IMG/VR virus record: IMGVR_UViG_3300011116_001227
Source of the DNA: a virus
Lineage: Duplodnaviria > Caudoviricetes
Direction: 5' to 3' (one strand)
Length of the DNA stretch: 64,000 nucleotides
Both the position numbers and the translations under genes were made by a program. The notes beneath the pieces are model-generated. The model made no database searches and was not told the DNA's origin. It worked only from the letters and a program-made list of their open reading frames with translations. Positions 3,481 through 30,325 of the stretch are shown here, piece after piece. The number at the start of each line of letters is the position of its first letter. Within the stretch, counting starts at the first letter, position 1.

Positions 3481-3540
3481 GAATCTGATCGTCTCTTGTA
3501 CAAGACTGTGTCTTAGATAAAATATACTGTTTAGAGGAAG

Positions 3541-11587: not shown

Positions 11588-11946
11588 AAGAAAATAAGCT
11601 ACATCAATCTATTTCTAAGCTCATCACAGAGAGATTAGCAAGAAGAGCGGGAGAGAAATTAGATTCTTCAACTTGCAGCTCAATTTATCAAGATATATTT
11701 TTTACATTGGCTGAAGTTTTTAAAGAAGCACAAACTCCACTATGTAATGAGTCTGTAAATCTTTTGTCGCAGATGTACTATGATTCTATTAAAATAAATA
11801 ACACAATAGAACTAGACCCAAATATCTTTACTCAAAGAGCCAGTCTTAAAAATATCGAAATAAAAGAAATTGCACTTTTAGCAACAATGATGAATGGAAC
11901 AGCATTTGCTACTATCTTCATAGAAGAAGTGAGGAAAAGATCTTGA
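11584..11946 (+). CDS. Hypothetical protein
   Basis: 120-aa ORF overlapping both neighbours by 4 nt. Confidence 0.7.
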   Translation: MKENKLHQSISKLITERLARRAGEKLDSSTCSSIYQDIFFTLAEVFKEAQTPLCNESVNLLSQMYYDSIKINNTIELDPNIFTQRASLKNIEIKEIALLATMMNGTAFATIFIEEVRKRS

Positions 11947-12668: not shown

Positions 12669-12672
12669 ATAA

Positions 12673-13536
12673 ATGAAGCTTGTTACAAATAATTATGGTT
12701 GTGGAACTTCGTCTTCTATTTTAGACTATGGCATCAAAGACGTAGTAATTGTTTCAGAAGAAAATTACGATCATATTTTCGATGTCGAAGATGATCTTTT
12801 CTTTATTGGACACGATTTTCTTTTTTATTTGTGGGACAATGAAGAAAAATTAAAAAGATGGATAGATCGATCTCAGAAATACGAACACTGGATTTGGTGT
12901 TTTGAGAGAATTGATGCTATTGTACCGATATGGCAACAAAAAAGTCATGCTTCGCTTTCTATAGCATCAAAATTTTGCAAGAGAATTTTTGCATGCGATG
13001 AAGATGACTGTGACAAATATAATTTTGAATGGTTGCCTCAATGGGCATCTCGAAATTTTTATGACTTAAGAAATTCTCAACAGCCAGCTACTGATAAAAT
13101 TTTATTTAGCGGTCAAGCTGGAATACCAGAATACCACATGAGAAATATTTTGCTTTCCAATATTTTGAACAGTGAAGAATTAAAAGATAAGATTTCTATT
13201 ACAAATACAAAAAGAAGTCTTACATGGGAAGAGTACATACAAAATTTCTTATTTCATAAGACAATATTGAATCCTGTCGGTATATTAAAAGGACTCAATA
13301 CGAGAGCATATGAAGCACTATATGCTGGAAGATTTTTACTTCAACATGCAGCAGGAATTTATAAACGTCATGAGAGCTTGCTTCAAGATAATCCTGGCGT
13401 GATATTTTTTAGAGATCATTCTGACTTAAAGAAAGCAATTCTAGAATCAGAGATAAGATCTACAAATACTGAAAAATCTTTTAGTGAACATTCTCTTTAC
13501 GCAAGAATGAAAATGATTGGAATTGATATCAAATGA
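12673..13536 (+). CDS. Putative glycosyltransferase (CgeB/Glyco_trans_1_2-like C-terminus)
   Basis: KTILNP...LNTRAYEALYAGRFLL resembles the NxRxFE motif; cluster context. Confidence 0.6.
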   Translation: MKLVTNNYGCGTSSSILDYGIKDVVIVSEENYDHIFDVEDDLFFIGHDFLFYLWDNEEKLKRWIDRSQKYEHWIWCFERIDAIVPIWQQKSHASLSIASKFCKRIFACDEDDCDKYNFEWLPQWASRNFYDLRNSQQPATDKILFSGQAGIPEYHMRNILLSNILNSEELKDKISITNTKRSLTWEEYIQNFLFHKTILNPVGILKGLNTRAYEALYAGRFLLQHAAGIYKRHESLLQDNPGVIFFRDHSDLKKAILESEIRSTNTEKSFSEHSLYARMKMIGIDIK

Positions 13537-14459
13537 TTTCTGAATTAGAAAAAAATTCAATTCGATTAAATTGGAAAGAAATATCTAGAAAATTACCTCT
13601 TATTTGTGGTTTAAAAACACTCAATGCAGAATTAACAATTTATTCTGTATTAAGACAAGCTTACCATCAGTTTGATTGCATTGTTATTACTGATGATGGA
13701 TCAACAGACGGAACAAAAGAAGAAATTGTTAGATGTGTCAAAGATTTTGAGATTAAAAATCTAATCTTTGTAGATGTTAGCACAATAAATCCTTGGGAAG
13801 ATAATCAGATAGAGAAACGACCTGGCGATCATCATGTTCCTCGCCCAGATGGAAAGACACATGCAAAAGCTCAGTGGAAGTCTTATGAATTTATAAAAAA
13901 GAATTTTCAAAATTCTATCTTTGTCTCTCTTGAAGACGATGTAATCTTAGAAGATAATATAAGATGGAGAATTTTTGATAGAATTTCTAAATGGAATGAT
14001 CCTTTTACAGATTGTGAATTTTTTAACGTAACTTCTGCTATTAACGAAGATTATGTTCTTCTTGGTTGTCTAAAAGACGGATCAAAACTTCCGGGTATAG
14101 TCCAAAGAAATCTTTACAATAATGGTGGTGATTGGACATTTGCAGCAATTTGGACGGGAGGAGATCTTTCTATTGGTCCTGATCCTCTTTATCCTTTTGG
14201 AGCGTGTATCTATCCTTGGATGGAAAAAAATCAGACAGGTAAAAAAGGGCAAGATGGAGAAAAATCTTTCGGTTTTCACATGATCAATTATAGAACTTCT
14301 AAGATTGGTCTAGAATATGAAACAAACACTCCAGGCGTTTGCAAGATTTCAGATTTGCCTGTCAATAATGAAGCTGATTGGAATTTATTAAAAAGAATAG
14401 GACCAAATAAAATCGATCTTGTGAAGAAAGATGACAACCTAATTCAGGTGTCAAAATGA
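13533..14459 (+). CDS. GT2-family glycosyltransferase
   Basis: IVITDDGSTDGT and VSLEDD motifs. Confidence 0.75.
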   Translation: MISELEKNSIRLNWKEISRKLPLICGLKTLNAELTIYSVLRQAYHQFDCIVITDDGSTDGTKEEIVRCVKDFEIKNLIFVDVSTINPWEDNQIEKRPGDHHVPRPDGKTHAKAQWKSYEFIKKNFQNSIFVSLEDDVILEDNIRWRIFDRISKWNDPFTDCEFFNVTSAINEDYVLLGCLKDGSKLPGIVQRNLYNNGGDWTFAAIWTGGDLSIGPDPLYPFGACIYPWMEKNQTGKKGQDGEKSFGFHMINYRTSKIGLEYETNTPGVCKISDLPVNNEADWNLLKRIGPNKIDLVKKDDNLIQVSK

Positions 14460-15283
14460 TACCAGTTGCTTCTGTTGCGACTCAAAAGAGCTTAAATGAA
14501 TTTCTTTTATTAAAGCTTTCTCTTGAACAATATCATGAAGTATCGTGGTATGTTTCCACTGATGAATTTGCTTACAATGTTTTAAAAGATTATAAGAATG
14601 TAACTTGTCTTAATCTTATCAAAACAGATGAATGCAGTCATGGAACAAATGACCCTATAAAAAATAGACTTTTTCTTGAGCTTGTCATGACTAAGTTTAG
14701 TGCTATGAAACTTGCAATTGAATCTCATGGCTATGGGTTATTCATAGACGCAGACATCTTCTTTACATCTCAAATAGAAGACAGAGTTATTGAGTTGATG
14801 AAGAATAAGAACATCGATGCAATTCTAAGTCCTCACATGACTAACAATCTAGGACTTGAAGCGCAAGTAGGGCACTTTAATGTTGGTTTCTTTTCTATGA
14901 GAAATAAAGACTACTTGTCTCTACACGAATCCTTGTCGTGGCAACATAAAGAATTTGGTATGTATTATGAACAGCAGCCTCTACAATTTAGCTCATATCA
15001 ATTTTTAACTGTAAATTTACCAATTTATTACAACATTGGTTGGTGGAGATTTAATGAAAAGCAGACTCAACAGAGACTTCAATTATTAACCACTGACGGG
15101 AAGGACATCTATTTTAGTGGATCTAAAGCTGTGTGTTTTCACGTGCATGCACTAAAGAAGTTAGACTACACCAATTATGGTAAATTCTTGCTAGACAAAG
15201 TTTCTTCGCTTATGAAGGAATGTGACAATAAAAACTATAAAAATATTCTAAAGTTTATAGAGGAAAATCGTGAAGACAACTGA
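14456..15283 (+). CDS. GT-A fold nucleotide-diphospho-sugar transferase
   Basis: FIDADIFF (DxD), ILSPH, FNVGFF, YNIGWW. Confidence 0.75.
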   Translation: MIPVASVATQKSLNEFLLLKLSLEQYHEVSWYVSTDEFAYNVLKDYKNVTCLNLIKTDECSHGTNDPIKNRLFLELVMTKFSAMKLAIESHGYGLFIDADIFFTSQIEDRVIELMKNKNIDAILSPHMTNNLGLEAQVGHFNVGFFSMRNKDYLSLHESLSWQHKEFGMYYEQQPLQFSSYQFLTVNLPIYYNIGWWRFNEKQTQQRLQLLTTDGKDIYFSGSKAVCFHVHALKKLDYTNYGKFLLDKVSSLMKECDNKNYKNILKFIEENREDN

Positions 15284-16145
15284 ACTGGCAAGAGAATTTT
15301 TGATAGAAAGAGTTGACCCTTGCTATCCTCCTCATCACACGGGAGATCATCTAGAAGAAGCATTTGTCAAGTTTTGGCAGGATGAAGGAAACAATGCGAG
15401 AAAGCTCATACCTGTGCATTGGACTGCTGTCTACAATCATAAAGTAAAGGAGGGTTTAGGACCGGGTACTCCTAATTGGTCATTAAGAAATGATCTTAAA
15501 AGATACCTTAATTCCCTTGACAAAAATGACAAGTATTTTGTAGTAACAACTCACGATGATGCACCAGCTGAAGATCTACCTCCAAACACAGTAGTTTTTG
15601 CAGCGGGAGGTAATGCTAAAAAAATTGACGTAGCGATTCCTCTTACTTGTGGTCCTCACAACATTACTGAAGATCCTCTAAGAACAATACCTTGTTCATT
15701 TGTTGGATCCATGACTCATCCTATACGACATACATTGTTGTCAAGAGTGCACAATAAACCTGGCATGCTAGTACAGGCTTTTGAGTGGCAAGAAAAAGTT
15801 TCAGATCAAAAAGCAGATCTTTTTAAGCAGATAACTCAAAGATCAATTTTTAGTCTATGTCCTAGAGGATATGGAGCATCAAGTTATAGACTCTATGAAG
15901 CAATACAACTTGGATCTATTCCTGTCTACGTTTCTGATAAGCATCTTCTTCCTTGGAATGATGAAATCAAGTGGCAAGACTTCTGTGTAATAGTCCACCC
16001 AGCAGATATTGACAATATTGCTGATTTAACACTTGGTCTATCTAACAGCAGAGTAAAAGAGATGCAAAAAAAATTAGAGAACATTTGGATAAATCATTTT
16101 AGTATTGAAGCAACCTGTAAGCATATTCTTAAGAGGACTAAGTGA
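15270..16145 (+). CDS. Exostosin-like (GT47) glycosyltransferase
   Basis: CSFVGS and SIFSLCPRGYGASSYRLYEAIQLGSIPVYVSD...LPW, the exostosin C-terminal signature. Confidence 0.85.
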   Translation: MKTTELAREFLIERVDPCYPPHHTGDHLEEAFVKFWQDEGNNARKLIPVHWTAVYNHKVKEGLGPGTPNWSLRNDLKRYLNSLDKNDKYFVVTTHDDAPAEDLPPNTVVFAAGGNAKKIDVAIPLTCGPHNITEDPLRTIPCSFVGSMTHPIRHTLLSRVHNKPGMLVQAFEWQEKVSDQKADLFKQITQRSIFSLCPRGYGASSYRLYEAIQLGSIPVYVSDKHLLPWNDEIKWQDFCVIVHPADIDNIADLTLGLSNSRVKEMQKKLENIWINHFSIEATCKHILKRTK

Positions 16146-17593
16146 CAAAAATTCTTTTTGTTATTGCTGATTATCCAGATAAGCGTCAAGACTTTTTTCT
16201 CAAATGGATGTCACCAAGAAATAAAGAATATGCATCTAAGCATGGTTTTGAATATAGGGAATTATTAAAGCTTCCAAGAGATGAAAATGGAAATTTCTTT
16301 AGAAATAATCCTACCTGGTTAAAATTTAAGATCATCAAAGATTGGATTGACTCAGGTGATTTAAAACACGGAGATATCGTTTCTCATATTGATGCAGACA
16401 TATGCATTTTTAATACTGATAAATCATTTCAAACTAGCAAGTCGTTTGGTTATGCAATAGACTCATGTAATACTCATTGTATGGGTGCATATACACTGAC
16501 CATAAATGATTGGTCGATTGACATGTTAAACACTATGCTTTCAGATGACTTATTTGAAAAATGTAAAGAAGAAGATCATTGGAAAGCTTTTAGAGAGCAA
16601 GCTGCTTGGTACACGATGGCAGGAATTTTACCACATAGCTGGCAACCATTTAATACAATGCCACACAATGGATTTCATAGCAAAGTAACTAATAATTTAA
16701 AGTACTCAATTGATGAGCTTGAAAAACATGTTGAAGTTTTTTCTACTGAATGGAATGTTACTCATGTAGCCGGTGAGGGTTTTAATGATTACTTTATGAT
16801 TCCTACTCACAGAAAAGATACAATCTTTAGACACTTCGCAGGAGGTGGACTTTGGGATGAAGCATATTTCACAAATACTTCTTCAGAAGCTACTCTAGAA
16901 CCTTCTCACCTAAGATGTGCTAAACAGTTTAAAAATAACAAAAAAGTTAATGTGAATCTTTGTAATTCAAATTTTATTAATACTTTAATCAATTCTTTAG
17001 GTCTAAGATCTTATCTAGAACTTGGTCTTGGAAATTTTGAAACATTTTCTAATGTAAATTGTGAAAAAAAGTTAGGCGTAGACATAGACAATGAAAAGTC
17101 TAAATTTTTATTAAATGAAAATGAAAAAGTTGTAATTGACTCTACGACTAATTTTTTAAAAAATACCAAAGAAAAGTTTGATATTATTTTTATAGATGCA
17201 GATCATCATAGAAATTCTGTCTTAGATGATGCAATTAATGCACTGGATATTTTAAGTCCAAAAGGAATTATTTGCTTTCACGATATCGGCCCTACTGAAG
17301 TCAACCAAACTTTAGAGACAGCTTGTGGATCTGCATACAAAGCATGGATTAATATAAGAAATGGTAATTTAGGTAACAATCTTTATCTTTGTTCTTATGA
17401 GCAAGATGATCCTACTCAAGATTCTTATACATCAATTATTGGAGTTCTCTGTAGAACAAGTTTTGATAAGACTAATTTTCTAGAAAAGAAAGTCGAAGAG
17501 AATTGGGAGTCTTATGAAAAAAATAGATCAGAGATTCTTAATGTTTTAAATGTTGAAGAGATGATAAAAATTCTTGATTTAAAAAGAGAATAA
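16142..17593 (+). CDS. Fusion of a GT-A (GT34/galactosyltransferase-like) domain and a class I SAM methyltransferase
   Basis: N-half PTWLK...HIDADIC...EQAAW; C-half SYLELG...FDIIFIDADH...GIICFHD (Methyltransf_24-like). Confidence 0.8.
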   Translation: MTKILFVIADYPDKRQDFFLKWMSPRNKEYASKHGFEYRELLKLPRDENGNFFRNNPTWLKFKIIKDWIDSGDLKHGDIVSHIDADICIFNTDKSFQTSKSFGYAIDSCNTHCMGAYTLTINDWSIDMLNTMLSDDLFEKCKEEDHWKAFREQAAWYTMAGILPHSWQPFNTMPHNGFHSKVTNNLKYSIDELEKHVEVFSTEWNVTHVAGEGFNDYFMIPTHRKDTIFRHFAGGGLWDEAYFTNTSSEATLEPSHLRCAKQFKNNKKVNVNLCNSNFINTLINSLGLRSYLELGLGNFETFSNVNCEKKLGVDIDNEKSKFLLNENEKVVIDSTTNFLKNTKEKFDIIFIDADHHRNSVLDDAINALDILSPKGIICFHDIGPTEVNQTLETACGSAYKAWINIRNGNLGNNLYLCSYEQDDPTQDSYTSIIGVLCRTSFDKTNFLEKKVEENWESYEKNRSEILNVLNVEEMIKILDLKRE

Positions 17594-18493
17594 ATGAAAA
17601 TTCTTTATATCACAACTTCTAATCCTAGAGCTCAAGGAGATTTTCAAGAGAATATAATTCTTCATGGTTTAAGAAGTATACTTGGATCTGATGTAGTAGA
17701 TCTTCCAAGAAAAAAAGTAATGTATGGAGATTTTTCTGAAACTACAAGAGACGAGCTTCACGGTAGAGGATTTACCCTTTACACAAAACCCTTGTTAGAC
17801 CTTGATGCATCTCAAAGACAATTATCTAGTGTAGATGTAATTCTTTACGGTGTGACCAATGCTTATGGAATAACTGACTATCCTGAAGTAAATCAAATTT
17901 GTAAAAACATTTGGTATATAGACGGTCATGATACTCCTGACATTAAAAAGACGCCTTGTTTTAAAAGAGAACTTTTTAGTGATCAAGAAAATGTGTATGC
18001 AACAGGATTTGGAATACCCCACTATCAAATTAGACCAATAACTCTTGATAAAGATCAAAAAGTTCAAAAGACTGCTCCTGCTGAGGCTTTTTTTAAGCCT
18101 GAAGTCATGCAGCATTTAAGACATCATTATCCTTATACTTGGAGACAAGAAAAGGATTATTACGAAGACATGCAAAGATCTTGGTTTGGTCTGACATGTA
18201 AAAAGGGTGGGTGGGATTCTCTTAGACATTATGAGATCATGGCAGCAGGATCTCTTTTGCTTTTTAGAGAATACGAAAAGAAACCTGTTCTTTGTGCTCC
18301 ACAAGAACTTCCATGTTACAGTTATTCTTCTTTAGAAGAGCTGGATGATATTATGAATAGACTGGTTATTAATAATAGACCTACAAAATCTTATATTGAT
18401 ATGCTTTACGCACAAAGAGAATGGCTGTTAAAGTATGGTACTACTGAAGCTAGAGCGCTGCAGATAGTTAAGAAATTAATAGAAAAGATATGA
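17594..18493 (+). CDS. Putative glycosyltransferase
   Basis: GGWDSLRHYEIMAAGSLLLF, a GT-B-like C-terminal motif; cluster context. Confidence 0.65.
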   Translation: MKILYITTSNPRAQGDFQENIILHGLRSILGSDVVDLPRKKVMYGDFSETTRDELHGRGFTLYTKPLLDLDASQRQLSSVDVILYGVTNAYGITDYPEVNQICKNIWYIDGHDTPDIKKTPCFKRELFSDQENVYATGFGIPHYQIRPITLDKDQKVQKTAPAEAFFKPEVMQHLRHHYPYTWRQEKDYYEDMQRSWFGLTCKKGGWDSLRHYEIMAAGSLLLFREYEKKPVLCAPQELPCYSYSSLEELDDIMNRLVINNRPTKSYIDMLYAQREWLLKYGTTEARALQIVKKLIEKI

Positions 18494-19293
18494 AAACAAA
18501 AGAATTAACAATTTGCTTTCATGCATCAGATACCGATGTGTTGAATAAACAGCTAGATGTTCTTCAAAAAGATTTTTATTTTTTCGATAAAGTAAATCTT
18601 AGAAAAAGATCAGAAATACATCCAGATGCATATGAGTCTTACTCTAAGATGGTTAACACTGCAATATCTGATTCAAAAACAGACGTAATAATTCTTGTTA
18701 ATGATAAAGTTTTGCCAAATCAAGGTGAATTAAAAAAAATTGTTCAACTTCTTGACGCAGGATTTGGTTATGTAGGAATGTATAGCATTGGATTTTGTGG
18801 TTTGACTAAAAGCCTTATTAAAAAGATAGGTTGGCTTGACGAAAGATTTCTTGGCGGTGGTTACGAAGACGATGATTTCTTTTTGCGTCTTAAGTTAAAC
18901 AATATTGCAATTTATGACTCACATGAATCAAACTACAACTACATGTCAAAACCTTCAAAATTGTCTGTATCTGTTCCTCTATCTAAATCAGAACCACACT
19001 TTATTTCTAAGTGGAAATTTAATGATCACACAATTGAAAAATTGTTAAAAGAAGAAAATTATGAAGACTATTCTTTATTAGAAGCAAAAGAAAAAGAATG
19101 GCTTGATTGGAATTGCAGTGTTCTTGGTTATTATTATGGTGTAGGCCCTAAGATAGGAATTCCTGAGAATGTGCACGTAAGTAATTTTCAAGGAATGTCT
19201 AGAACTTTTAGATTTTCTGTAGTTCCTTATGGCGGACAAATTTTTGGTAAAAATAAGTCTATAATTGACGTGAAAGAAATTGAAGAATCATGA
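18490..19293 (+). CDS. GT2-like glycosyltransferase
   Basis: IILVND and IGWLDERFLGGGYEDDDFFLRL. Confidence 0.75.
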   Translation: MKTKELTICFHASDTDVLNKQLDVLQKDFYFFDKVNLRKRSEIHPDAYESYSKMVNTAISDSKTDVIILVNDKVLPNQGELKKIVQLLDAGFGYVGMYSIGFCGLTKSLIKKIGWLDERFLGGGYEDDDFFLRLKLNNIAIYDSHESNYNYMSKPSKLSVSVPLSKSEPHFISKWKFNDHTIEKLLKEENYEDYSLLEAKEKEWLDWNCSVLGYYYGVGPKIGIPENVHVSNFQGMSRTFRFSVVPYGGQIFGKNKSIIDVKEIEES

Positions 19294-20261
19294 AGAAAAA
19301 AGTTCTAATTACAGGTGGACTAGGATTTATAGGAATTCACTGTGTTCAGAAGTGGAAATCTGAAGGATGGGAAATTCATATTATTGATAATCTTTCTTCA
19401 AATGCTATTTCACCTAATCATGATTTTGTTATTGAAGAAAATCTATTAATAAAAAATATTCTTGATGTAGACTGGAAAGATCTTCCTAAATTTGATCTAA
19501 TTGTTCATCTTGCATCACCTGTAGGTCCTGTTGGTGTGCTTAAGCACGCAGGTAACATGGCTAAGATTATTCTTGAAGATATTTATTGGGCAATTACAGG
19601 TGCTAAGAAGAATAATTGTCCTCTTATATTCATTTCAACTTCAGAAATTTATGGTCATAGAGAAGAAAAAAGTTATCTTGAAGAATCAAGTGATAAAGTT
19701 CTTCATGGAGATTTTACTGTTAGAAATGAATATGCTATTGCAAAACTTTTGTCGGAAATTGTCTTGACTAATCACGGAAAGATTAGTAATGAATTTAAAT
19801 ATCAAATCGTAAGACCTTTCAATGTGACAGGAGAATATCAATTACCAGATGGTGGTTTTGTTTTACCTAGATTTGTAAGTCAAGCATTGAACTGTGAAGA
19901 TATTACTGTTTATTATGATGGAAAACAATTGAGAGCATTCACATGGGTAAAAGACATAGTTGATGGAATATTCTTAACTTCTATTGCACAACAAGATTTA
20001 TGGAATCAAGAGTGGAATATTGGAAACAAGAATAATGAAAGAACTATTCTTTATCTTGCAGAAAAAGTAAAAGAGTTGACAAAGTCATCATCTAAAATTT
20101 CTCATGTAGATCCTACTGATTTGCATGGTCCTCTTTTTGCAGAAGCACCTGAAAAAATTCCTAATAGCGATAAGATTGAAAGACTTCTTAACTGGCAACC
20201 CACAAAAGGTGTAGACGAAGTAATTCAAGAAGTTGTAGATTTCTACAGGAGAAAAAATTGA
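19290..20261 (+). CDS. NAD-dependent epimerase/dehydratase, UDP-glucuronate decarboxylase (Uxs)-like
   Basis: ITGGLGFIG, HLASPVGP, STSEIYG, YxxxK (YAIAK), RPFN, QALxxEDITVY.DGKQLRAF. Confidence 0.85.
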   Translation: MKKKVLITGGLGFIGIHCVQKWKSEGWEIHIIDNLSSNAISPNHDFVIEENLLIKNILDVDWKDLPKFDLIVHLASPVGPVGVLKHAGNMAKIILEDIYWAITGAKKNNCPLIFISTSEIYGHREEKSYLEESSDKVLHGDFTVRNEYAIAKLLSEIVLTNHGKISNEFKYQIVRPFNVTGEYQLPDGGFVLPRFVSQALNCEDITVYYDGKQLRAFTWVKDIVDGIFLTSIAQQDLWNQEWNIGNKNNERTILYLAEKVKELTKSSSKISHVDPTDLHGPLFAEAPEKIPNSDKIERLLNWQPTKGVDEVIQEVVDFYRRKN

Positions 20262-21238
20262 AGATTGCATTCCACTCATACCAGCTTGGTGAGAGAGGCA
20301 CAGAGATTTGTCTCTACAAGTATGCAAAGTATAATCAAGAAATTCTGGGAAATGAGTCTGTAATAATCTCAACTTCTTCAAGGCCTACGCCCACGTTGTC
20401 AAGATTTTCTACAGAGTTTAAAACAATTCTTTATCCAGATGTATGGATAAACGATGGCAAAAATGACTCATTAAGATCAACTTTAGAAAGTATAGTTGAT
20501 CGAGAAAAAGTAGATGCATTCTATGCAATTAAGGGTGGAGAAGATGATGGATTTATGCCTAAAAATTGCAAAAGACTTGCGCATGCAATCTTTAGAATGG
20601 ATCAACCTCATGGAGATGTTTACGCAGGTGTTTGTAAGTATATTTCTGACAAATATGGAGGAATTCACCCATATGTTTACCATATCATCGATGCACCTGA
20701 CGTCAATGAAAATTTAAGAGAAAAATTAGGAATTCCTAAAGACGCTTTTGTTTTTGGTCGTCATGGAGGAAAAGATACATTTAGCATACAATTTGTAAAA
20801 GAAGTTATCAGTTATGTTTTAAGCGTTAGAAATGATGCTTATTTTTTGTTTTTAAATACAGATAGATTCATAGATCATGAAAGAGTAATTTACTTACCTG
20901 CAATTCTTGAAGAAGTAGAAAAAAATAAATTCATTAATACTTGCGATGCAATGATTCATGCAAGATTAGATGGTGAAATTTTTAGTTTGTCTACTGCAGA
21001 ATTTTCAATAAAAAATAAACCAGTAATTACTTGGGATGGCTATCTTGATTGTTATGACAGAGGACATATTGAAATTTTAAGAGAAAAAGGAATATATTTC
21101 AAGACTCCTCAAGACCTATTTCAAATTTTAATTAATATAGATCATAATTTTGTTAAAAACAACAATTGGGATGCGTATAAAGACACATTTTGTGCAAAAA
21201 ATGTAATGAATCAATTTAATAAAGTGTTTTTAACTTAA
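20258..21238 (+). CDS. GT-B fold glycosyltransferase
   Basis: GERGTE N-terminal motif; CDAMIHARLDGEIFSLSTAEFS...KPVITW. Confidence 0.8.
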   Translation: MKIAFHSYQLGERGTEICLYKYAKYNQEILGNESVIISTSSRPTPTLSRFSTEFKTILYPDVWINDGKNDSLRSTLESIVDREKVDAFYAIKGGEDDGFMPKNCKRLAHAIFRMDQPHGDVYAGVCKYISDKYGGIHPYVYHIIDAPDVNENLREKLGIPKDAFVFGRHGGKDTFSIQFVKEVISYVLSVRNDAYFLFLNTDRFIDHERVIYLPAILEEVEKNKFINTCDAMIHARLDGEIFSLSTAEFSIKNKPVITWDGYLDCYDRGHIEILREKGIYFKTPQDLFQILINIDHNFVKNNNWDAYKDTFCAKNVMNQFNKVFLT

Positions 21239-21247
21239 ACAGCTAAA

Positions 21248-22207
21248 ATGATAATTTCAAGATGCCCAGTAAGAGTTTCTTTAGCCGGTGGATCAACTGA
21301 TCTAGATTTATTTTTGCAGAAGTACGGCAAAGGAACAGTTATTAGTTTTTCTGCAAACATTTACAATTATATCACTCTTAAATCTGACAGAATGGGTCTT
21401 AATGGATTAGAGAAAAAATATGTAATTGATTACATGAAAAGAGAAGTGACTGATTCTATTGAAGACATTAAAAACGATGTAGCAAGAATTGCATTAAGAC
21501 ATTTTAATGTTGATCCTACGACTGTTTGGTTTACAAGCGACATATATGCATCAGGTTCAGGATTAGCATCATCGACATCTTATCTAATTGCTTTAATTAA
21601 TGCAATTCAAACATCACTTAATTTAAACATGACAAGGAGAGAATTGTGTCAAATCTCTCATATGCTTGAAAAACAATTCAATCCTTTGACTGGTTACCAA
21701 GATCCTTATAGTTGTGGCACTGGTGGTTTTAATAGATTTGACTTTAGTAATAATGGAATAGTCAGAATAGAAAACCTTAATACAGATATTTTTGATAATT
21801 TTGATGCATATCTGGTGCACACGGGCCAAGCAAGAAGTTCAACTGATGTTTTAAAAACAATAGATCCTGATAAGTGTCTAAAGTTATTAGACACAGCTGA
21901 ACAAATGCATCGGTGTATTTTAAGCAATGATTCTAAAGGTGTTCTCGAGCTGATCAAAGAAGGCTGGCTAATTAAAAAGTCTACTGGCAAAATTGCCGAA
22001 GATAAACGCGTTATTGATCTTGATGACATATTAGAGAACGATAAATCTATTTTAGCGCACAGGCTTTTAGGCGCAGGAAACGGTGGATATTTTTTAGCAT
22101 TTGCCAATAAAAATTCAAAAATTGACGACTTGCAAGATAAAACAGGACATCAAATGGTTAAGATAGACATTTGTCATGCAGGACCAACTTGCATGCAGGT
22201 AAGGTGA
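21248..22207 (+). CDS. GHMP-family sugar kinase (HddA-like heptose-7-phosphate kinase)
   Basis: CPVRVSLAGGSTD, SGSGLASS, GYQD, LLGAGNGGY. Confidence 0.85.
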   Translation: MIISRCPVRVSLAGGSTDLDLFLQKYGKGTVISFSANIYNYITLKSDRMGLNGLEKKYVIDYMKREVTDSIEDIKNDVARIALRHFNVDPTTVWFTSDIYASGSGLASSTSYLIALINAIQTSLNLNMTRRELCQISHMLEKQFNPLTGYQDPYSCGTGGFNRFDFSNNGIVRIENLNTDIFDNFDAYLVHTGQARSSTDVLKTIDPDKCLKLLDTAEQMHRCILSNDSKGVLELIKEGWLIKKSTGKIAEDKRVIDLDDILENDKSILAHRLLGAGNGGYFLAFANKNSKIDDLQDKTGHQMVKIDICHAGPTCMQVR

Positions 22208-22208
22208 T

Positions 22209-22706
22209 ATGAATATTGTTGATGTCATTGAAGCATGCAGTAAATTAGATCACAATAAACTCAATAATCTATGTGATCTTATTAAATCAAAATCAACCAT
22301 AATAATCTTGGGCAACGGAGGCAGCAATGCAATTGCAAGTCACATCTCACAAGATTACACTAAGAAATTAAAAAAAAGATCTTTTACTTTTTCAGACCCT
22401 TCCAGACTAACTTGCTATATTAATGACTATGGCATGGAAGAAGCTAATCGTCAATTTTTAAGAGAATTTTCAGATTCAGATTCTTTAGTCATATTAATTT
22501 CTTCATCAGGAAATTCAGTTAATATTTTAAATTGTGCAGATTACTGTGTAGAAAAGTCTATTGATTTTGTTATACTCACGGGATTTGATCAAAACAACAA
22601 ACTAAGAAATTATTCTTCTTTAGCAAAAGAAGAATTTTGGATTGATTCAAAAGACTATGGTGTTGTAGAATGTGTTCATCAACTAATTCTACACGTGCCT
22701 GCATGA
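22209..22706 (+). CDS. gmhA: SIS-domain phosphoheptose isomerase
   Basis: GNGGSNAIASH, ISSSGNSVNI, YGVVECVH. Confidence 0.85.
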   Translation: MNIVDVIEACSKLDHNKLNNLCDLIKSKSTIIILGNGGSNAIASHISQDYTKKLKKRSFTFSDPSRLTCYINDYGMEEANRQFLREFSDSDSLVILISSSGNSVNILNCADYCVEKSIDFVILTGFDQNNKLRNYSSLAKEEFWIDSKDYGVVECVHQLILHVPA

Positions 22707-23032
22707 TCTATTGTTTTGATATAGACGGAACAATTTGTTCTTCAGTAAAAAATAGCGATTATCAAAAGGCCGAGCCTTTTAAAGATGTAATTGATGAAAT
22801 TAATCATCTTTATGAAAGCGGTCATAAGATTATTTTTATGACTGCAAGAGGATCAGTGTCAGGAAAAGACTGGACAGAACTAACTAAATCACAGCTAAAA
22901 AAATGGAATGTCCAGTACCACGAGCTAATCATGAATAAAAAACCGCATGCTGATTTATTCATTGATGACAAAGCTAAGAATATTGTAGATTGGAGACGGG
23001 AAATACATGAAAAAAAGAGTTCTAATTATTGA
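22703..23032 (+). CDS. HAD-superfamily phosphatase (capsule-biosynthesis phosphatase type)
   Basis: Start moved to the ATG at 22703 (ATGA overlap): MIYCFDIDGTIC, MTARG, KPHADLFIDDK. Confidence 0.85.
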   Translation: MIYCFDIDGTICSSVKNSDYQKAEPFKDVIDEINHLYESGHKIIFMTARGSVSGKDWTELTKSQLKKWNVQYHELIMNKKPHADLFIDDKAKNIVDWRREIHEKKSSNY

Positions 23033-24050
23033 TCCTCAGAAACATTTTCCTCTTGCGGTCAAAATGTTCGATAATGCTGATTATTTTTCTCCAAGAATAG
23101 ATCTTAGCAAGATTCCTACAATACAACCTGTAATGACACATGCCCGTGCAGAAGAATTGTATGGCGTAAAAATTCTTGAAGAAGAAGATGTCACAGGTGA
23201 ATATGACTTAGCTGTCATTGTATGGGCTATCAATTCTCTAGGTGACTGGTTAGATGCAAGAATTCAATGTATGGTTCCAACTACAGTTTCTAACCTAACA
23301 GATCTTGAAGAAAGACAAGAATTATTTCACAGCATCTACAAGTTAATAAAAAAAGTTCAGCCAAAAAAAGTTGTATTTTTTGATGGTAATGATTCTCCTC
23401 TTGTAGGCAAAGGCCTAAAGTGGCTTGATGACAACGATTATCAATGTGATGCTGTTTTTAAAAGAGAATATAGAAGAACTTATGCTTACGACTACGACAA
23501 TAGAATTCATCCATTTCCTTTTCTAGGCGGCAGTCGTGCAGATCCTTGGTTCCTCTTTGAAAAGAGGGTCAAAGGAAACGAAGGAATTATGGGATGTTTT
23601 TGGTCGGGTGCTCCGATACATAGATTTCAACCTGAAAGACCTGATGAGTGGTGTAATCGTAGAGACTTTTTGGCAGAAGTCCAAAACTTTTTGGTAATAA
23701 AGTCAGGTTTGCCGCAGGCTGAATTCTTAAATCAATTCAATCAATATAAATTTTTTCTTCATCTGAACGGTACGGGCCATCTTTGCGGAAGATTTTTTGA
23801 AGGTTTATCTAGAGACTCTTTAATGATCATGCAAGAGATGGATGTAGTTTTTCCTTTTGACAAAGGAGAGAATTTTCATAAAAAATGTGTCGTTAAAACA
23901 CCAAGAGAATTTATTGAAAATTTAATAGAATTAGCAAATAATCCTAAGCTCTATGATGAATGCAAGAATATTCAAGAACTCATTGTAGAAAAATATTACA
24001 ATTACGAATGGATTAAAAATTACGTTTTTGAGAAATCTAATGCTTTATGA
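23007..24050 (+). CDS. Putative glycosyltransferase-like protein
   Basis: YKFFLHLNGTGHLCGRFFEGL resembles GT-B/GT90-type C-termini; cluster context. Confidence 0.55.
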   Translation: MKKRVLIIDPQKHFPLAVKMFDNADYFSPRIDLSKIPTIQPVMTHARAEELYGVKILEEEDVTGEYDLAVIVWAINSLGDWLDARIQCMVPTTVSNLTDLEERQELFHSIYKLIKKVQPKKVVFFDGNDSPLVGKGLKWLDDNDYQCDAVFKREYRRTYAYDYDNRIHPFPFLGGSRADPWFLFEKRVKGNEGIMGCFWSGAPIHRFQPERPDEWCNRRDFLAEVQNFLVIKSGLPQAEFLNQFNQYKFFLHLNGTGHLCGRFFEGLSRDSLMIMQEMDVVFPFDKGENFHKKCVVKTPREFIENLIELANNPKLYDECKNIQELIVEKYYNYEWIKNYVFEKSNAL

Positions 24051-25146
24051 TTATGTGATAGTTGGGTCAGGCCTCTTTGGCGCAATATTCGCTAGAGAAA
24101 TGACAGATTCGGGAAAGAAATGTCTTGTCATTGACAAACGTGATCACTCAGGCGGTAATGTTCATTCAGAACAAATTGAAGGAATTCACGTAAGCAAATA
24201 TGGCGGTCACATATTTCATACGAATGATGAAAGAATCTGGAACTATATAAATAGATTTGCAAAATTTGATTCCTATCACCACCGCCTTCGCGTGCATTAC
24301 AAAGAAAAGCTTTATTCTTTTCCCATAAACTTAATGACATGTTACCAGTTGTGGGGGTGTCGTACGCCAGAGGAAGTTGAACTTCAACTCAATAAGGTAA
24401 AAATTCCCATAGATAATCCAAAAAATCTAGAAGAATGGGCATTATCACAAGTAGGACAAGAGATTTATGAAACATTTGTCAAAGGCTACACACAAAAACA
24501 GTGGAACTTAGATCCTAAGAATTTACCAGCTTCTATAATAAAGAGAATACCGATTAGAACAAATTACGATGATTGTTATTTCTCTGACAAATTTCAAGGA
24601 TGGCCATCTAATGGTTATTCAGAAATATTTGATAATTTGCTTAAAGGAATACGTGTAGAATTATCAACTGATTTTTTTAAAGATCGCTCTTACTTCGAGA
24701 AGATTGGAAAGAAAATAGTCTACACAGGAAAAATTGATGAATATTTTGATTATCTACACGGAGATTTGTCTTATCGATCACTTAGATTTGAAAATAAGAT
24801 TTTAGATCAGACTGATTTTCTTGGATGTGCCACTGTGAATTACACAGAATTAGAAGTTCCTTACACAAGAATTATTGAACACAAGCATTTTCAGCCTCAC
24901 AGAGTTAGTTTAATACAAAAAACTCTTGTTACTTACGAATATCCTGACGACTGGAATAGAAGCAAGGTCCCTTATTATCCTGTCAACAATGACGTTAATA
25001 ATGAGATTTATAGAAATTATCAAGAAGAAACTTTAAAATTGGAAAATGTAATTTTTGGTGGAAGGTTAGCTGAGTACAGATACTATGATATGCATCAGGT
25101 TGTTGGATCAGCATTAAGCAAATCATTAAAAGAATTAAGCAAATGA
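24040..25146 (+). CDS. glf: UDP-galactopyranose mutase
   Basis: Likely start ATG 24040: YDYVIVGSGLFG, GGHIFHT, YTGKID, YRSLRFE, PYYP, GGRLAEYRYYDM. Confidence 0.95.
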   Translation: MLYDYVIVGSGLFGAIFAREMTDSGKKCLVIDKRDHSGGNVHSEQIEGIHVSKYGGHIFHTNDERIWNYINRFAKFDSYHHRLRVHYKEKLYSFPINLMTCYQLWGCRTPEEVELQLNKVKIPIDNPKNLEEWALSQVGQEIYETFVKGYTQKQWNLDPKNLPASIIKRIPIRTNYDDCYFSDKFQGWPSNGYSEIFDNLLKGIRVELSTDFFKDRSYFEKIGKKIVYTGKIDEYFDYLHGDLSYRSLRFENKILDQTDFLGCATVNYTELEVPYTRIIEHKHFQPHRVSLIQKTLVTYEYPDDWNRSKVPYYPVNNDVNNEIYRNYQEETLKLENVIFGGRLAEYRYYDMHQVVGSALSKSLKELSK

Positions 25147-25562
25147 AAAAAGGACTTATAGCAGGATCCTTTGATTTGATCCACCCAGGCTACGTTAGAA
25201 TGTTTAAAGAATCTAAAAAGATATGTGAATATCTCATCATAGCACTTCAAGATGATCCAACAATTGAAAGATCTTCTAAGTGTAAGCCTGTTCATACGCT
25301 AGAAGAAAGAAAAGAAATTTTAAGTGCTTTAAAGCACGTTGATGATGTTGTAACATACACCTCTGAAAATGAGTTATATGAACTTCTTAAAAATCTAGAG
25401 TATGATGTACGAATACTGGGCATCGAATACAAAGAAAAAAATTATACAGGAAAAGATTTAAACAAACCAGTTTATTGGTTAGACAGACCTCACGCTTATT
25501 CAACTACTAGTTTAAAAGAAAAAATTTATAAAGAGCGATCGGAGTTTAAAAAGAAATTATGA
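25143..25562 (+). CDS. Cytidylyltransferase-family nucleotidyltransferase (TagD/HldE C-domain-like)
   Basis: GSFDLIHPGY (HxGH-like), ER.EIL.ALK.VD.V, YSTTSL. Confidence 0.88.
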   Translation: MKKGLIAGSFDLIHPGYVRMFKESKKICEYLIIALQDDPTIERSSKCKPVHTLEERKEILSALKHVDDVVTYTSENELYELLKNLEYDVRILGIEYKEKNYTGKDLNKPVYWLDRPHAYSTTSLKEKIYKERSEFKKKL

Positions 25563-26500
25563 AAAGATCAATTGCAGTCATCGGACAAGGATTTGTGGGA
25601 GGTTCTCTTACAACTGTCTTTTCAGAGCGTGGGTTTGATGTCTATGCGTATGATAAGGCAGGAAAGTATGCAAAGGGAGCATTGCCAAGTCATGGAGAAC
25701 CTGTTGCTGGTTACCCAAATTCTATTGCAGAATTAATTCAAGATAATGAGGATGGTGGAACACCGGGATTTTCCAACGTTTATTTCGTGTGTCTTCCTAC
25801 ACCAATGTATGAAGATGGTTCAGCTGATCTAAGCATTGTTGAAGGCGCATTGAGAGAATTAGCAGCTGTACCTGGTCAAAGAATTGCGGTAATTAAGTCG
25901 ACTATACCCCCAGGATCTACAGAAAAATGGAATGAAATGTTCAAGGAAACAGGTCTAAAAGTAGTCTTCAACCCAGAGTTCTTGACAGAAAGAACAGCAT
26001 TAGACGATATGCGCAACCAAGATAGAATTATTCTTGGTGGACCACGACCTTGGATTAATACGGTCAAACAAATTTTTAGAACAGCATTTTCAAATACAAA
26101 AATAATAAAGACATCATCTACTACTGCTGAAATGGTCAAATATTTGACAAATAATTTTTTAACAGTCAAGGTTGCATTTGCTAACGAAATGCATCAGATT
26201 TGCGAGGCTTTAGACAAAGAAGGCCTCAATGTTGATTACGATAAAGTAATTGAATATGCTTCGCATGACATTAGACTAGGCCCTAGTCACTGGAATGTGC
26301 CTGGACCGGATGGTCGTTTTGGCTTTGGCGGAAGTTGCTTTCCTAAAGACATTAATGCCATGATGTGCGTTTCAAAAGGATTAAATGTAAATTCAACAAT
26401 TCTTAAAGCTGCCTGGGACAAAAATCTTGAAGTAAGACCAGAGCGTGACTGGGAACAACTTCTTGGAAGAGCAGTTTCTATTAAAAAACAAGATACTTGA
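25559..26500 (+). CDS. ugd: UDP-glucose/GDP-mannose dehydrogenase family, short form
   Basis: IGQGFVG, VCLPTP, KSTIPPG, FNPEFLTE, AEMVKY, GFGGSCFPKD; ends at 313 aa without the usual C-terminal domain. Confidence 0.88.
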   Translation: MKRSIAVIGQGFVGGSLTTVFSERGFDVYAYDKAGKYAKGALPSHGEPVAGYPNSIAELIQDNEDGGTPGFSNVYFVCLPTPMYEDGSADLSIVEGALRELAAVPGQRIAVIKSTIPPGSTEKWNEMFKETGLKVVFNPEFLTERTALDDMRNQDRIILGGPRPWINTVKQIFRTAFSNTKIIKTSSTTAEMVKYLTNNFLTVKVAFANEMHQICEALDKEGLNVDYDKVIEYASHDIRLGPSHWNVPGPDGRFGFGGSCFPKDINAMMCVSKGLNVNSTILKAAWDKNLEVRPERDWEQLLGRAVSIKKQDT

Positions 26501-26536: not shown

Positions 26537-27355
26537 ATGCAAGATACAAAATTATCTTTTGAGTCTCTTCCCACGGGTAAGCCTCATGTTTCTTTTTCAG
26601 AAGTCAAACTCTGGAAAGAATGTTCCTATCGTCACAACTTAGTTCATATCAAAAAAATTGACCTGTCAAAACCCTCTCCTGTTTTAGACTTTGGTACTGC
26701 AGTTCATGCGTCTTGTGAACATTATCTTCTAACAAGAGAAATGAAGCCAGAAATTGCTTTTGAACACATGGAAAAAGCTTGGGCCAAGCATGCAGGAAAT
26801 CCAGATTTTAGCCCCGCTGCATTAGAAAAATCAAAGAAGGAAGTTGAAGCGATTCTTTCAGAAGTTCCAAAGTTTCTTGATGAAACATTCGAGGAATGGG
26901 AAGTTGTCGATGCAGAACATCAACTCTATGAAGCAGTAGAAAATCATCCTCATGCTTTTAAAGGCTTCATTGATGGTGTTATTAAATCAAAAGGAAAAAG
27001 AGGAGAAACATTGTACTGGATCCTCGACTGGAAAACTACTGCAAGAGGATGGATGAGAGAAAAAAGATCAGACGAAATGGTCAAATCTCAATTGGCTCTC
27101 TATAAGAACTTTTGGTGTAAAAAAAATCCTGATGTTCCTTTCAAAAATGTCCGCTGCGGATTCGTGCTCCTGAAGAAATCAGCCAAACTAGGAGATCATT
27201 GCGAGCTATTCTCTGTATCAATGGGAGATGTTCCCGTAAAAAGATCACTTAAAGTCGTTAGCAACATGTTAACTTCTGTAAAACGAGGAGTTGCATTAAA
27301 AAATCGGGATGCTTGTACGTGGTGCGAATATAAAGGCACCGAGCACTGCACTTAA
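26537..27355 (+). CDS. PD-(D/E)XK nuclease (Cas4/AddB-like)
   Basis: HVSFS...C, FGTAVH, GFIDG, ILDWKT, QLALY, C-terminal CTWCEYKGTEHC. Confidence 0.88.
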   Translation: MQDTKLSFESLPTGKPHVSFSEVKLWKECSYRHNLVHIKKIDLSKPSPVLDFGTAVHASCEHYLLTREMKPEIAFEHMEKAWAKHAGNPDFSPAALEKSKKEVEAILSEVPKFLDETFEEWEVVDAEHQLYEAVENHPHAFKGFIDGVIKSKGKRGETLYWILDWKTTARGWMREKRSDEMVKSQLALYKNFWCKKNPDVPFKNVRCGFVLLKKSAKLGDHCELFSVSMGDVPVKRSLKVVSNMLTSVKRGVALKNRDACTWCEYKGTEHCT

Positions 27356-27360
27356 AAGCT

Positions 27361-27769
27361 TTGAAAGATAAAGAATACTTTGGGGATATTGTGTCGTTTC
27401 AAAAAAGCTTCTTATAGAATTTAATGGCGATTATTGGCATTGTAATCCTCTAAAGTATGAATCAAGTTTTTTTATCAAGTTAAAAAATTAAAAGCTCATG
27501 AAATATGGGAAAATGATGCTAAAAGACTTGAAACAATTTCTGAATTAGGGTATAGAATACACATTATATGGGAGAGCGAATCCAAGAATGGATCTTGGGT
27601 TGATAAGCTCGATCGTTGGCTGGAGGAAAATGCAAAAGAAAACAATACTAATGCTATCAGACCATCCGTGAACGACTACAGCTCAGCGGATGTAAAATTG
27701 GGTGAATTGCTGGAAAGTCATGGAACTAACACCACAACGCAACTGGAAACGGTAGACGTGAAGGTTTGA
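27361..27769 (+). pseudogene. Frameshifted Vsr/DUF559-like (putative homing) endonuclease remnant
   Basis: Three frame fragments read LKDKEYFGDIVSFQK / KLLIEFNGDYWHCNPLKYESSF / YQVKKLKAHEIWENDAKRLETISELGYRIHIIWESE. The breaks fall at A6 (27401-27406) and T7 (27467-27473). EFNGDYWH and GYxxxxIWE are hallmark motifs. Confidence 0.8.
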
Positions 27770-29141
27770 AAAGTTAGAGCTATATGACAATCAGCAGCCG
27801 AGCTCCTGTGAAGAAATTCTGGAGAAGGTTCAGAGACTACGGTTAGCCTAAATCGAAAGACATGGTAATGATCCGACAGCGCCCAACACCAATTTGGTGA
27901 TGATATAGTCCAAACTTCATAAATAAGTGAGCACGTCGGGTGTCGGAACTCAAGCGCGCTGGTTAGTTCAAGGTTTAACTAGCACTGGCAAATATAGCTT
28001 TAGATGTTTTGGCGGAGCAGTAAGACACGACAACTACGATACTGTCGCAGTCGATCCAGATTTTATTATAAAGCCAACAGATGGATTTGGCGATAAGAAT
28101 CTGCTTAGAAAAACTCTTGCGCAAGTAAAACCTGATGCAATTTTGTTGTTTACCGATCCTAGATTTTTTGTTTGGGTCTGGGAAATGCAAGACGAAATTC
28201 AACAAGTATGTCCAATAGCATACTGGCACTTGTGGGACAATCCACCATGGCCAGACTACAACAAGGTTCTATATGAGTCAACTGATCTGATCAATTGCAT
28301 TAATTATCCGACTTATGAGATGGTCAAAGAAAGATTTCCAAATAGAACAAATTATATACCTCACGCAGTTCCAAAAGATCTTTATAAACTCATTTCAAAA
28401 GAGGAGTCAATTCAATTCAAGAAGCGTCTTCTAGGTAATGAAAGAGCTGATCATTTTACTGTGTTGTATGTTTCAAGAAATGCTAGAAGAAAGATGACTG
28501 CTGATATTCTTGTATCTTGGAAGCTATTTCTTAAAGATCTTCAAGAAAAGCACGGTCACACAAAAGCTTCTATAATCATGCACTGTGATCCTCTTGATCA
28601 AGAAGGAACAAATTTACACAGTGTAATTGACATGCTGGGAATTAAAGAAAATACAATCTTTTCAAAGGATAGAATTGGTTTTGAAGACATGCGTGTTCTG
28701 TACAACATGTGTGATACAGTCGTAAATCGTTCTTCTAATGAAGGATTTGGTTTGCCAATTCTCGAAGCAAAGATGTGTGGAAAACCAGTCATATCTATTA
28801 AAACTGGTGGGTTAACACGTCAAGTTGAAGATCACATAACTGGCGAGCAATATGGAATTGGTCTTGATCCAGAAGTAAGCTCTATGGTAGGTAATCTTAT
28901 GATTCCTTACATCTATGAAGACTTTATCTCTCATAAAACTCTTTCTGAAGCTTTTATGAAGATGTATGATTACGGTCCTGAAAAGAGAGAAGAGATTGGT
29001 CAGAGAGCAATGAAGCATGCACACAGAGATTACGATCTTGATGCTGTCGTCGCTGAATGGGACAGGACTTTAATGAATACAATAGAGAACTGGAAAGATC
29101 CAGCCACGAAACCTGCAACATGGGAAATGAAGGTGCTCTGA
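27630..29141 (+). CDS. GT4-like glycosyltransferase, split gene: join(27630..27669,27928..29141), 417 aa
   Basis: GGAGG SD and ATG 27630 give MQKKTILMLSDHP; splicing adds TTG and continues STSGVGTQARW; C-terminal SSNEGFGLPILEAKMCGKPVI. The ORF-track start at 27927 is the intron terminal G. Confidence 0.9.
27670..27927 (+). mobile_element. Group I self-splicing intron (258 nt, no internal ORF)
   Basis: P AATTGCTGGAAA (27705), Q AATCAGCAGCC (27789), R GTTCAGAGACTA (27828), S GATATAGTCC (27902); P3 TTGGGTG/CGCCCAA; P7 GACTA/TAGTC; P1 CATCCGT/GCGGATG with U-G at the 5' splice site; P10 GCTCA/TGAGC; terminal G at 27927. Confidence 0.95.
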
Positions 29142-30325
29142 TGTTTGAAACATTTCTAAATAAAAAGAAGATTTTACTTCGTGCACCAGTTTTAACTCAG
29201 TCTGGATATGGTGTTCATTCAAGACAAATTGCTAGATGGCTCTTAAGCAAAGAGAATCTTGACGTGTATTTTCAAGCGCTGTCTTGGGGCAATACTCCGT
29301 GGATCATTAATAGTGATTTTTGTAATGGCTTGATTGGAAAGATGATGGAAAAAACTGTCGATCCAACAGGACAAAAATACGATGCTACAATACAAGTTCA
29401 GCTTCCTAACGAATGGGACTCAACTTTGTCTTCTGTTAACATAGGAGTATCAGCATTTGTAGAAACTGATATTTGCAATCCAAGCTGGTTGAGAGACTGT
29501 GAAAAAATGACAGCAGTCGTAGTTCCATCAAATCATTGTGTGGATGTCATTAAAAAGACAGGTTCTTTAACATCACATGTACACGTCATTCCCGAGGCAT
29601 ATCCAGACGAGATTAGAGAAAAGAAAAAGACTCGCGTAGACGACATGATTTTTGATACTAATTTTAACTTCTTGTTTGTCGGTCAAATCACAGGAAAAAA
29701 TGCTGAAAATGACAGAAAAAATATTTTCTACACGATCAAGTGGTTCTGTGAAGTCTTTGACAAAGACAAAGATGTAGGTCTTGTAATCAAGACAAACTCT
29801 GGAAGAAATACAAAGATCGACAATCAGATTGTCACAAATATGCTTCGGTCTGTCTTGTCAGAATTGAAAAAGAAGACTGAGCCAAAAATTTACTTAATTC
29901 ATGGTGAAATGTCAGACCAAGAGATGGTTTCTCTATACACACATCCGCAGATAAAAGCGCTTGTTTCTTTAACGAGAGGTGAAGGATATGGTCTTCCTCT
30001 TCTTGAAGCTGCCGCATCCAGTCTTCCAGTTATTGCAACTGGATGGTCTGGCCATCTTGATTTCTTGTCAAAAGGAAAATTTTTAAATATTGATTACAAA
30101 CTAGAGAATGTTCATCCTTCTAGAGTCGACAACATGATATTCATGCAAAACTCAAAATGGGCAAATGTGTCTGAAGAAGACTTTAAGAAGAAAATTCTTA
30201 AGTTTAGAAACTCACATTCTACTCCAAAAGAATGGGCTAAAGAACTAAGCGAAAAGATTTTAGATCAGTATTCTTTTGAGTCGATCAGCAAATTATATGA
30301 CCAAAAAATTGGTAATCTTTTATGA
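29141..30325 (+). CDS. GT4-like glycosyltransferase
   Basis: Likely start ATG 29141 (TGATG overlap); LTQSGYGVHSR, RKNI, SLTRGEGYGLPLLEAAASSLPVIATGWSGHLDFL. Confidence 0.9.
   Translation: MFETFLNKKKILLRAPVLTQSGYGVHSRQIARWLLSKENLDVYFQALSWGNTPWIINSDFCNGLIGKMMEKTVDPTGQKYDATIQVQLPNEWDSTLSSVNIGVSAFVETDICNPSWLRDCEKMTAVVVPSNHCVDVIKKTGSLTSHVHVIPEAYPDEIREKKKTRVDDMIFDTNFNFLFVGQITGKNAENDRKNIFYTIKWFCEVFDKDKDVGLVIKTNSGRNTKIDNQIVTNMLRSVLSELKKKTEPKIYLIHGEMSDQEMVSLYTHPQIKALVSLTRGEGYGLPLLEAAASSLPVIATGWSGHLDFLSKGKFLNIDYKLENVHPSRVDNMIFMQNSKWANVSEEDFKKKILKFRNSHSTPKEWAKELSEKILDQYSFESISKLYDQKIGNLL

Follow-up and report, generated by a model that had tools for sequence, protein, structure and literature searches.

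A group I intron in a phage glycosyltransferase gene and the homing endonuclease gene that accompanies it

The DNA analysed here, called the window, is a 64-kb stretch from a large, uncultured freshwater phage (IMG/VR record IMGVR_UViG_3300011116_001227). It carries, within a glycosyltransferase (GT) gene, a group I intron of 258 nt at positions 27670-27927, and the remains of a free-standing homing endonuclease (HE) gene lie directly before and across the start of this gene. The GT exons, the intron, the HE remnant and an upstream exonuclease gene are all on the plus strand, and the related metagenomic loci with which the window was compared bear L-numbers. We consider, with a probability of about 0.8, that the intron and the HE gene form a collaborative homing unit, met at varied stages of decay, in which the intron is real and the GT intact; the HE gene would then explain how the intron arrived in a GT gene. 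Collaborative homing, as outlined in two articles (PMC6083498, PMC3984707), is the process by which a free-standing HE cuts intron-less alleles at the insertion site of an intron that protects its carrier; they describe it for F-CphI and the psbA gene of cyanophage S-PM2 and for a second phage.

We examined the intron itself against the Rfam model RF00028, for which the gathering score is 50 bits. The match, at 27592-27932, reached 71.2 bits (E 4.6e-16), and the Rfam scan of the whole 64-kb window returned no other match. The boundaries given by the original prediction were present in the sequence exactly: exon 1 (27630-27669, 40 nt) starts with the ATG at 27630 and encodes MQKKTILMLSDHP followed by the first base of a Leu codon, the intron ends with a terminal G at 27927, and exon 2 (27928-29141) opens TGAGCACG. 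The insertion thus falls between base 1 and base 2 of GT codon 14. A ribosome-binding site for the GT, GGAGG, is found at 27622-27626, within the HE remnant. The guide sequence GCTCAGCGGATG (27681-27692) does pair with both exons, as had been claimed. Its P1 part, GCGGATG (27686-27692), pairs with CATCCGT at the end of exon 1 (27663-27669), with the U27669.G27686 pair at the cut, and its P10 part, GCTCA (27681-27685), pairs with TGAGC at the start of exon 2 (27928-27932). The core pairings P3 (27698-27704/27880-27886), P4 (27708-27713/27791-27796) and P7 (27835-27839/27906-27910), which had been proposed earlier, could be placed together with P5 (27718-27722/27783-27787, with an extension between its strands), P6 (27797-27799/27827-27829) and P8 (27887-27891/27895-27899). 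The fold further comprises P6a (27803-27806/27821-27824), an extra hairpin of 36 nt, P7.1 (27840-27875), and a short P9 (27915-27917/27925-27927); P2 is absent, UAAAA following directly after P1 and leading to P3.

The fold was evaluated with RNAalifold and by counting pairs in an alignment of eight distinct intron versions, with 56 pairs taken over P1, P10, P3, P4, P5, P6, P6a, P7, P7.1 and P8. For these named helices 98.4% of the cells were paired, compared to 27-42% in controls in which the 3' partners were shifted by 1-3 columns, and compensatory double changes were found in 13 of the 56 pairs, compared to 1-3 in the same controls. These changes include pairs of P3, P6a, P8, P10 and two of the three stems of the P7.1 hairpin. 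In P10, the change of the Leu codon from TTG to TTA in L042 (exon UAAGC) is matched by a change of the guide from GCUCA to GCUUA. Six of the seven P1 pairs, including the U.G, are invariant in 8/8 variants, the outermost C-G being lost in L037, which reads CA, and the P9 sequence varies from variant to variant. One or more extra helices between P7 and P3' (P7.1/P7.2 or P7.1/P7.1a) are the mark of subgroup IA. Judged by its predicted fold, the intron is a group I ribozyme of IA type without an open reading frame (ORF) of its own. P7.1/P7.2 appear among the elements by which group I introns are classified in a review (PMC3984707). A strongly diverged version of the same intron, 280 nt long with a longer 3' end, lies at 2417-2696 of L042 and scores 73.4 bits with RF00028; its compensatory changes fall in P3, P6a, P7.1, P8 and P10. 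Over 100-150 nt, the intron core is also matched at 71-76% identity by unannotated DNA of Staphylococcus, Listeria and Serratia phages.

The interrupted gene codes for a GT4-type GT-B enzyme, matching PF00534 (Glycos_transf_1) with 56 bits for a cut-off of 26 (E 4e-15). About 4600 GT relatives were collected from a search of 5.8 billion proteins, and the closest ones fall into two lengths, 404 aa and 417 aa. The intron-less 417-aa homologues P0006, P0008 and P0011 (97-98% identical) start with MQKKTILMLSDHPLSTSGVGTQ, which is exactly the predicted ligated product, in line with the 417-aa GT-B enzyme foreseen by the original prediction; more distant homologues keep the same N-terminal motif. 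The homologous enzymes of 417 aa therefore carry the extra N-terminus and do not start naturally at STSGVG. All homologues conserve the 13 N-terminal residues, from which the first strand of the N-terminal Rossmann domain is built, and the Gly-rich first strand and loop KKTILMLSDHPLSTSGVG at the GT N-terminus is regained only through splicing. In L001-L003, an exonuclease gene is followed by 39 bp and an uninterrupted GT gene, with no insert. Among intron-bearing lineages the dN/dS ratio of exon 2 is 0.04-0.10, the more distant of them being saturated at synonymous sites, and all changes in exon 1 of the intron-bearing alleles are synonymous and leave its frame and amino acids intact. The host GT gene is intact and under strong purifying selection. 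Since exon 2 is maintained in this way the gene is in use, and the intron must therefore be removed.

It had been claimed that unspliced exon 1 reads into the intron, which proved wrong for the window: an in-frame TGA (CCG TGA), its T from the exon and its GA from the intron, spans the 5' splice site, and the unspliced message would yield a peptide of 13 aa only. In-frame stops at the 5' splice site are presented in a review (PMC3984707) as common in phage introns and as thought to exclude ribosomes from the ribozyme. The unspliced frame of L042 continues for four intron codons after exon 1 and then stops. The ORF of 404 aa that begins at the GTG at 27927 was considered as the true gene and rejected, because no Shine-Dalgarno sequence lies ahead of this GTG and the intron-less homologues have the 13 extra residues. 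The splice-site TGA, the GTG devoid of a ribosome-binding site and the conserved N-terminal residues together support the earlier proposal that expression of the GT would depend on splicing. The ligated exon junction is predicted to read CATCCGTTGAGCACG and the unspliced one CCGTGAACGAC. In the proposed pathway, the ribozyme would fold once the transcript is made, the TGA at the 5' splice site halting ribosomes before they reach it; an exogenous G would attack after U27669, which the guide sequence keeps in P1, and the released exon 1 would then attack after G27927, exon 2 being held through P10, to give the mRNA for the 417-aa GT.

We then considered the region upstream of the GT gene. The distance from the exonuclease stop (27355) to the GT start is 274 bp in the window compared to 39 in the intron-less relatives, and a decayed free-standing HE gene was located at 27361-27769 by tblastn with the intact HE P0121, by DNA alignment with L004 and from the translations. 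It corresponds to residues ~216-339 of an intact protein of 339 aa. Its three-frame translation gives LLIEFNGDYWHCNPLKY and AHEIWENDAKRLETISELGYRIHIIWESE, in which the Vsr-like motifs EFNGDYWHCNP and HIIWESE are kept, and the alignment with L004 showed that ~660 nt of the 5' part have been lost and that two 1-nt deletions have occurred. The last frame of the remnant spans the GT ribosome-binding site and exon 1, and its stop (TGA, 27767-27769) lies within the intron. The HE of the window is dead and its intron is no longer actively spreading, yet it must splice for the GT to be made.

Intact HE ORFs of 315-350 aa are present in L004-L006, L008, L015, L037 and L042; the 339-aa HE of L004 lies at 2790-3809. 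The proteins contain repeated Cys-pair modules resembling Zn-ribbons and a NUMOD3 motif (22.2 bits, above the Pfam cut-off); among the curated families DUF559, MTES_1575, EDxHD and NUMOD3, only the last is matched above threshold, the scores with PF04480 and PF18741 being 13-18 bits and below their cut-offs. In the C-terminal domain D221, E232, G235, W238, H239, W262, D265, W283 and E284 are invariant and D236 is nearly so. A profile built from 24 family members weakly matched the I-TevI DNA-binding domain, Vsr and I-Bth0305I in the PDB (E 0.013-0.07), and a search of the PDB with the single HE sequence gave no match. The AlphaFold model (mean pLDDT 81.8) was related by Foldseek to the catalytic domain of I-Bth0305I (3R3P, target-normalised TM 0.71) and to Vsr (1CW0), both with a probability of 1.00. 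On the basis of this model the protein is predicted to be a homing endonuclease of modular build whose nuclease is Vsr-like. The GT ribosome-binding site, exon 1 and the start of the intron code for its last ~36 residues, for which the model predicts disorder (pLDDT <50). The HE frame of other lineages ends earlier, inside exon 1, and the C-terminal tail looks incidental.

A further 14 loci, drawn from metagenomes of lakes, rivers and other sources, carry the same intron at the same position, and RF00028 scores of 57-77 bits were obtained in nine related loci. The presence of the intron was compared with that of the HE gene. Where the contig of an intron locus covers the upstream side, an HE gene or remnant was found directly upstream in every case, intact in the seven loci listed above and as a remnant in the window, L009, L012 and L014. 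Ten intron-less loci that were checked (L001-L003, L018, L019, L022, L025-L027 and L032) have neither element, the exceptions being L039 and L041, which have an HE homologue without intron. Several features point to mobility of the intron. Introns are 85-91% identical between loci where exon 2 is only 67-72% identical; the comparison of the window with L004 is reversed, with 90% identity for the intron and 95% for the exons. The alleles that bear the intron all read CCG T|TG AGC, with TA AGC in L042, whereas 10/10 intron-less, HE-less alleles read CCN YTN TCN, and this shift of Ser codon family from TCN to AGC is unreachable in one synonymous step. Against L001, an intron-less locus that is otherwise 98% identical, the identity of the window is down to 78% for exon 1 and to 73% for the 60 nt that open exon 2, and is back at 95-100% beyond them, so that the exon flanks look like a co-conversion tract from a divergent donor.

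The two loci with an HE homologue and no intron were inspected separately. The homologues, at 1725-2760 of L039 and 2501-3460 of L041 (43% and 40% identity), stand just before the GT gene, with overlapping stop and start codons. The insertion site reads CCG TTA TCT in L039 and TTG AGT in L041, and the latter suggests that L041 may have lost its intron precisely. Taken together, the loci can be ordered along a homing cycle, from the empty site through invasion and HE decay to loss. In the contigs of four DNA metagenome runs over 26900-28700, compared at 85% likeness, there was no clean intron-less joint. Each of the four runs has contigs that break off within the intron, and fragments of other elements align to the EFNGDYWH motif and to the intron core; this is consistent with repeats or polymorphism and proves neither. 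Many unrelated short contigs of these runs share either the EFNGDYWH-coding stretch (27412-27448) or the P3/P4 core (27687-27888), and the communities hence hold many related HE genes and group I introns.

Under collaborative homing, co-infection would allow the HE to cut intron-less GT alleles at the insertion site or close to it, and the cut genome would gain copies of the HE gene, exon 1 and the intron through repair. Shielding of the carrier from its own HE would come from the intron and the altered flanking codons together. In the window, later decay of the HE would have left the intron as an immobile yet still required passenger. Several points weigh against this interpretation. The HE may target a site other than the insertion site of the intron, and in L039 and L041 it is carried without the intron, so it can persist unprotected. 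Splicing, both in vivo and as self-splicing in vitro, is deduced from sequence. With P2 missing and a P9 of only 3-4 bp including the terminal G, this is a minimal group I intron. In addition, in relatives with an intact HE gene its frame passes through P1 and ends as far as 73 nt inside the ribozyme, and translation of the HE tail should disturb ribozyme folding unless the two are separated in time. A more specific proposal, which we regard as doubtful, makes a mechanism of this overlap: the family would represent intermediates between free-standing and intron-encoded HEs, the enzyme would cut at codon 13/14, and translation of the tail through P1-P5 would compete with splicing and render HE and GT expression mutually exclusive.

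The strongest competing explanation, though an unlikely one, keeps the splicing of the intron and takes the HE to be an ordinary free-standing enzyme that cuts elsewhere, for example in the exonuclease-GT spacer or deeper in the GT gene, the intron being co-converted from 40 nt away without shielding any target. The HE homologues that precede intron-less GT genes in L039 and L041 speak for it, as they indicate that the intron is not strictly needed, and homing in trans is documented for T4 MobE (PMC2790892). The co-conversion tract seen against L001 fits homing in trans and collaborative homing alike. Outside these two loci, however, the HE and the intron occur together in every sampled lineage, including L042, where the HE is only 39% identical and the intron strongly diverged. 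The insertion site, moreover, is in the most conserved GT motif (SDHPLSTSGVG), of the kind that HEs choose, and the TTG AGT at the site of L041 resembles the product of a precise intron loss more than an ancestral state.

It is very improbable that the ribozyme is dead and that the GT is made from the GTG at 27927 as a 404-aa protein, with the 300 nt upstream as junk and the protein beginning at this point where the spliced product would have MQKKTILMLSDHPLSTSG as its N-terminus. Public gene calls do give 404-aa products for all intron-bearing alleles, and splicing is predicted from the sequence. Against this, lineages with saturated synonymous sites still have a ribozyme core that is either unchanged or compensated, the frame and amino acids of exon 1 are retained in all intron-bearing alleles, no ribosome-binding site precedes the GTG and all intron-less homologues have the 13 additional residues with the first Rossmann strand. 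Hardly credible is the co-option of the intron as a switch by which splicing efficiency, through GTP level or translation state, would time phage glycan production, for although splicing of T4 introns depends on translation and growth state (work cited in PMC3984707) and the GT gene lies in a long sugar-pathway cluster, closely related phages manage without the intron, its presence tracks the HE gene and not the pathway, and its sequence gives no sign of a ligand-sensing domain.

The closest known counterpart is the psbA intron of S-PM2 with F-CphI (Zeng, Bonocora & Shub 2009, as reported in PMC6083498 and PMC3984707), which likewise has close relatives devoid of both elements. The host gene is a GT here and psbA there, and the enzyme is a predicted Vsr-like nuclease with NUMOD3 and Zn-ribbons, whereas F-CphI is an Endo VII-motif protein. 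In contrast to S-PM2, the HE gene is upstream, with a frame that runs over into the 40-nt exon 1 and stops there or in the intron. Cleavage at the insertion site was demonstrated for F-CphI and would be expected here. T4 MobE, which acts on the nrdB intron with its defunct I-TevIII (PMC2790892), shares with the present case a free-standing HE beside the intron-containing gene that moves a non-autonomous intron. I-Bth0305I, the EDxHD enzyme of Bacillus phage 0305phi8-36, shares the Vsr-like fold but is encoded inside its intron, unlike the HE described here, and the sequence relation is very weak (E 0.07). The E-x2-G-D-Y-W-H motif of the present HE is nearer to Vsr than to I-Bth0305I, and the Zn-ribbon and NUMOD3 modules come in addition. 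The intron shares the P/Q/R/S core, the extra helix between P7 and P3' and the splice-site stop with small IA phage introns (T4 td, nrdB and nrdD, Staphylococcus phage), and differs from them by the lack of P2, a single long P7.1, a very short P9 with the terminal G and the class of its host gene.

The literature search turned up no report of such an intron within a glycosyltransferase gene of a phage, in agreement with the original prediction, which knew of no such case. The intron is a regular RF00028 member and its scheme of mobility is a known one; it is the host gene that is unusual, and a sugar-pathway gene would thereby be added to the short list of phage genes with self-splicing introns. 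Gene callers miss exon 1 across public metagenomes and report products of 404 aa instead of 417 aa. Collaborative homing had been noted in "two different phages" in a 2014 review (PMC3984707), and the present family would be a well-populated natural example. Its interest lies mainly in offering a rich natural system for testing the rise of mobile introns: as all stages are found side by side in metagenomes, their origin becomes testable with a few cloned alleles, and the HE is a compact modular enzyme, predicted to be Vsr-like, with its likely target defined.

Concerning the phage and the neighbourhood of the GT gene, proteins near-identical to those of the window are found on contigs up to 210 kb, the DNA of the window was matched in lake and river metagenomes, and its helicase and baseplate genes are distantly phage-like. 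The sequencing runs listed for it were all DNA metagenomes (lake, river, plankton and virome), and a look for RNA runs among them gave none. The conserved upstream neighbour of the GT gene is a PD-(D/E)XK exonuclease gene (26537-27355, 272 aa; PF12705, E 3e-17), supported by synteny in L001-L003. Further upstream, a long same-strand cluster of sugar-pathway genes (9683-26500) holds the genes for a UDP-galactopyranose mutase (24028-25146; PF03275, E 1e-76) and a UDP-glucose dehydrogenase-like protein without the C-terminal domain (25559-26500). A Methyltransf_21 gene lies between the cytidylyltransferase-like and dehydrogenase genes in L001 (L001:1099-2153) and in L004, and the window (25146-25562) is apparently without it; upstream, the alignment of the window with its relatives is out of register from ~800 nt before the exonuclease stop. 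Downstream, a second GT4-like gene (29057-30325) overlaps, as called, the end of the intron-bearing GT gene by 85 nt. Among isolate phages, the closest GT is only 31% identical and belongs to Microcystis phage Mel-JY01 (L040). It is split into two ORFs 10 nt apart (PP395634.1, 83441-84932), which were taken as a frameshift or a split gene, an intron being rejected. These ORFs are located behind a PD-(D/E)XK nuclease gene, in a gene order that resembles that of the window.

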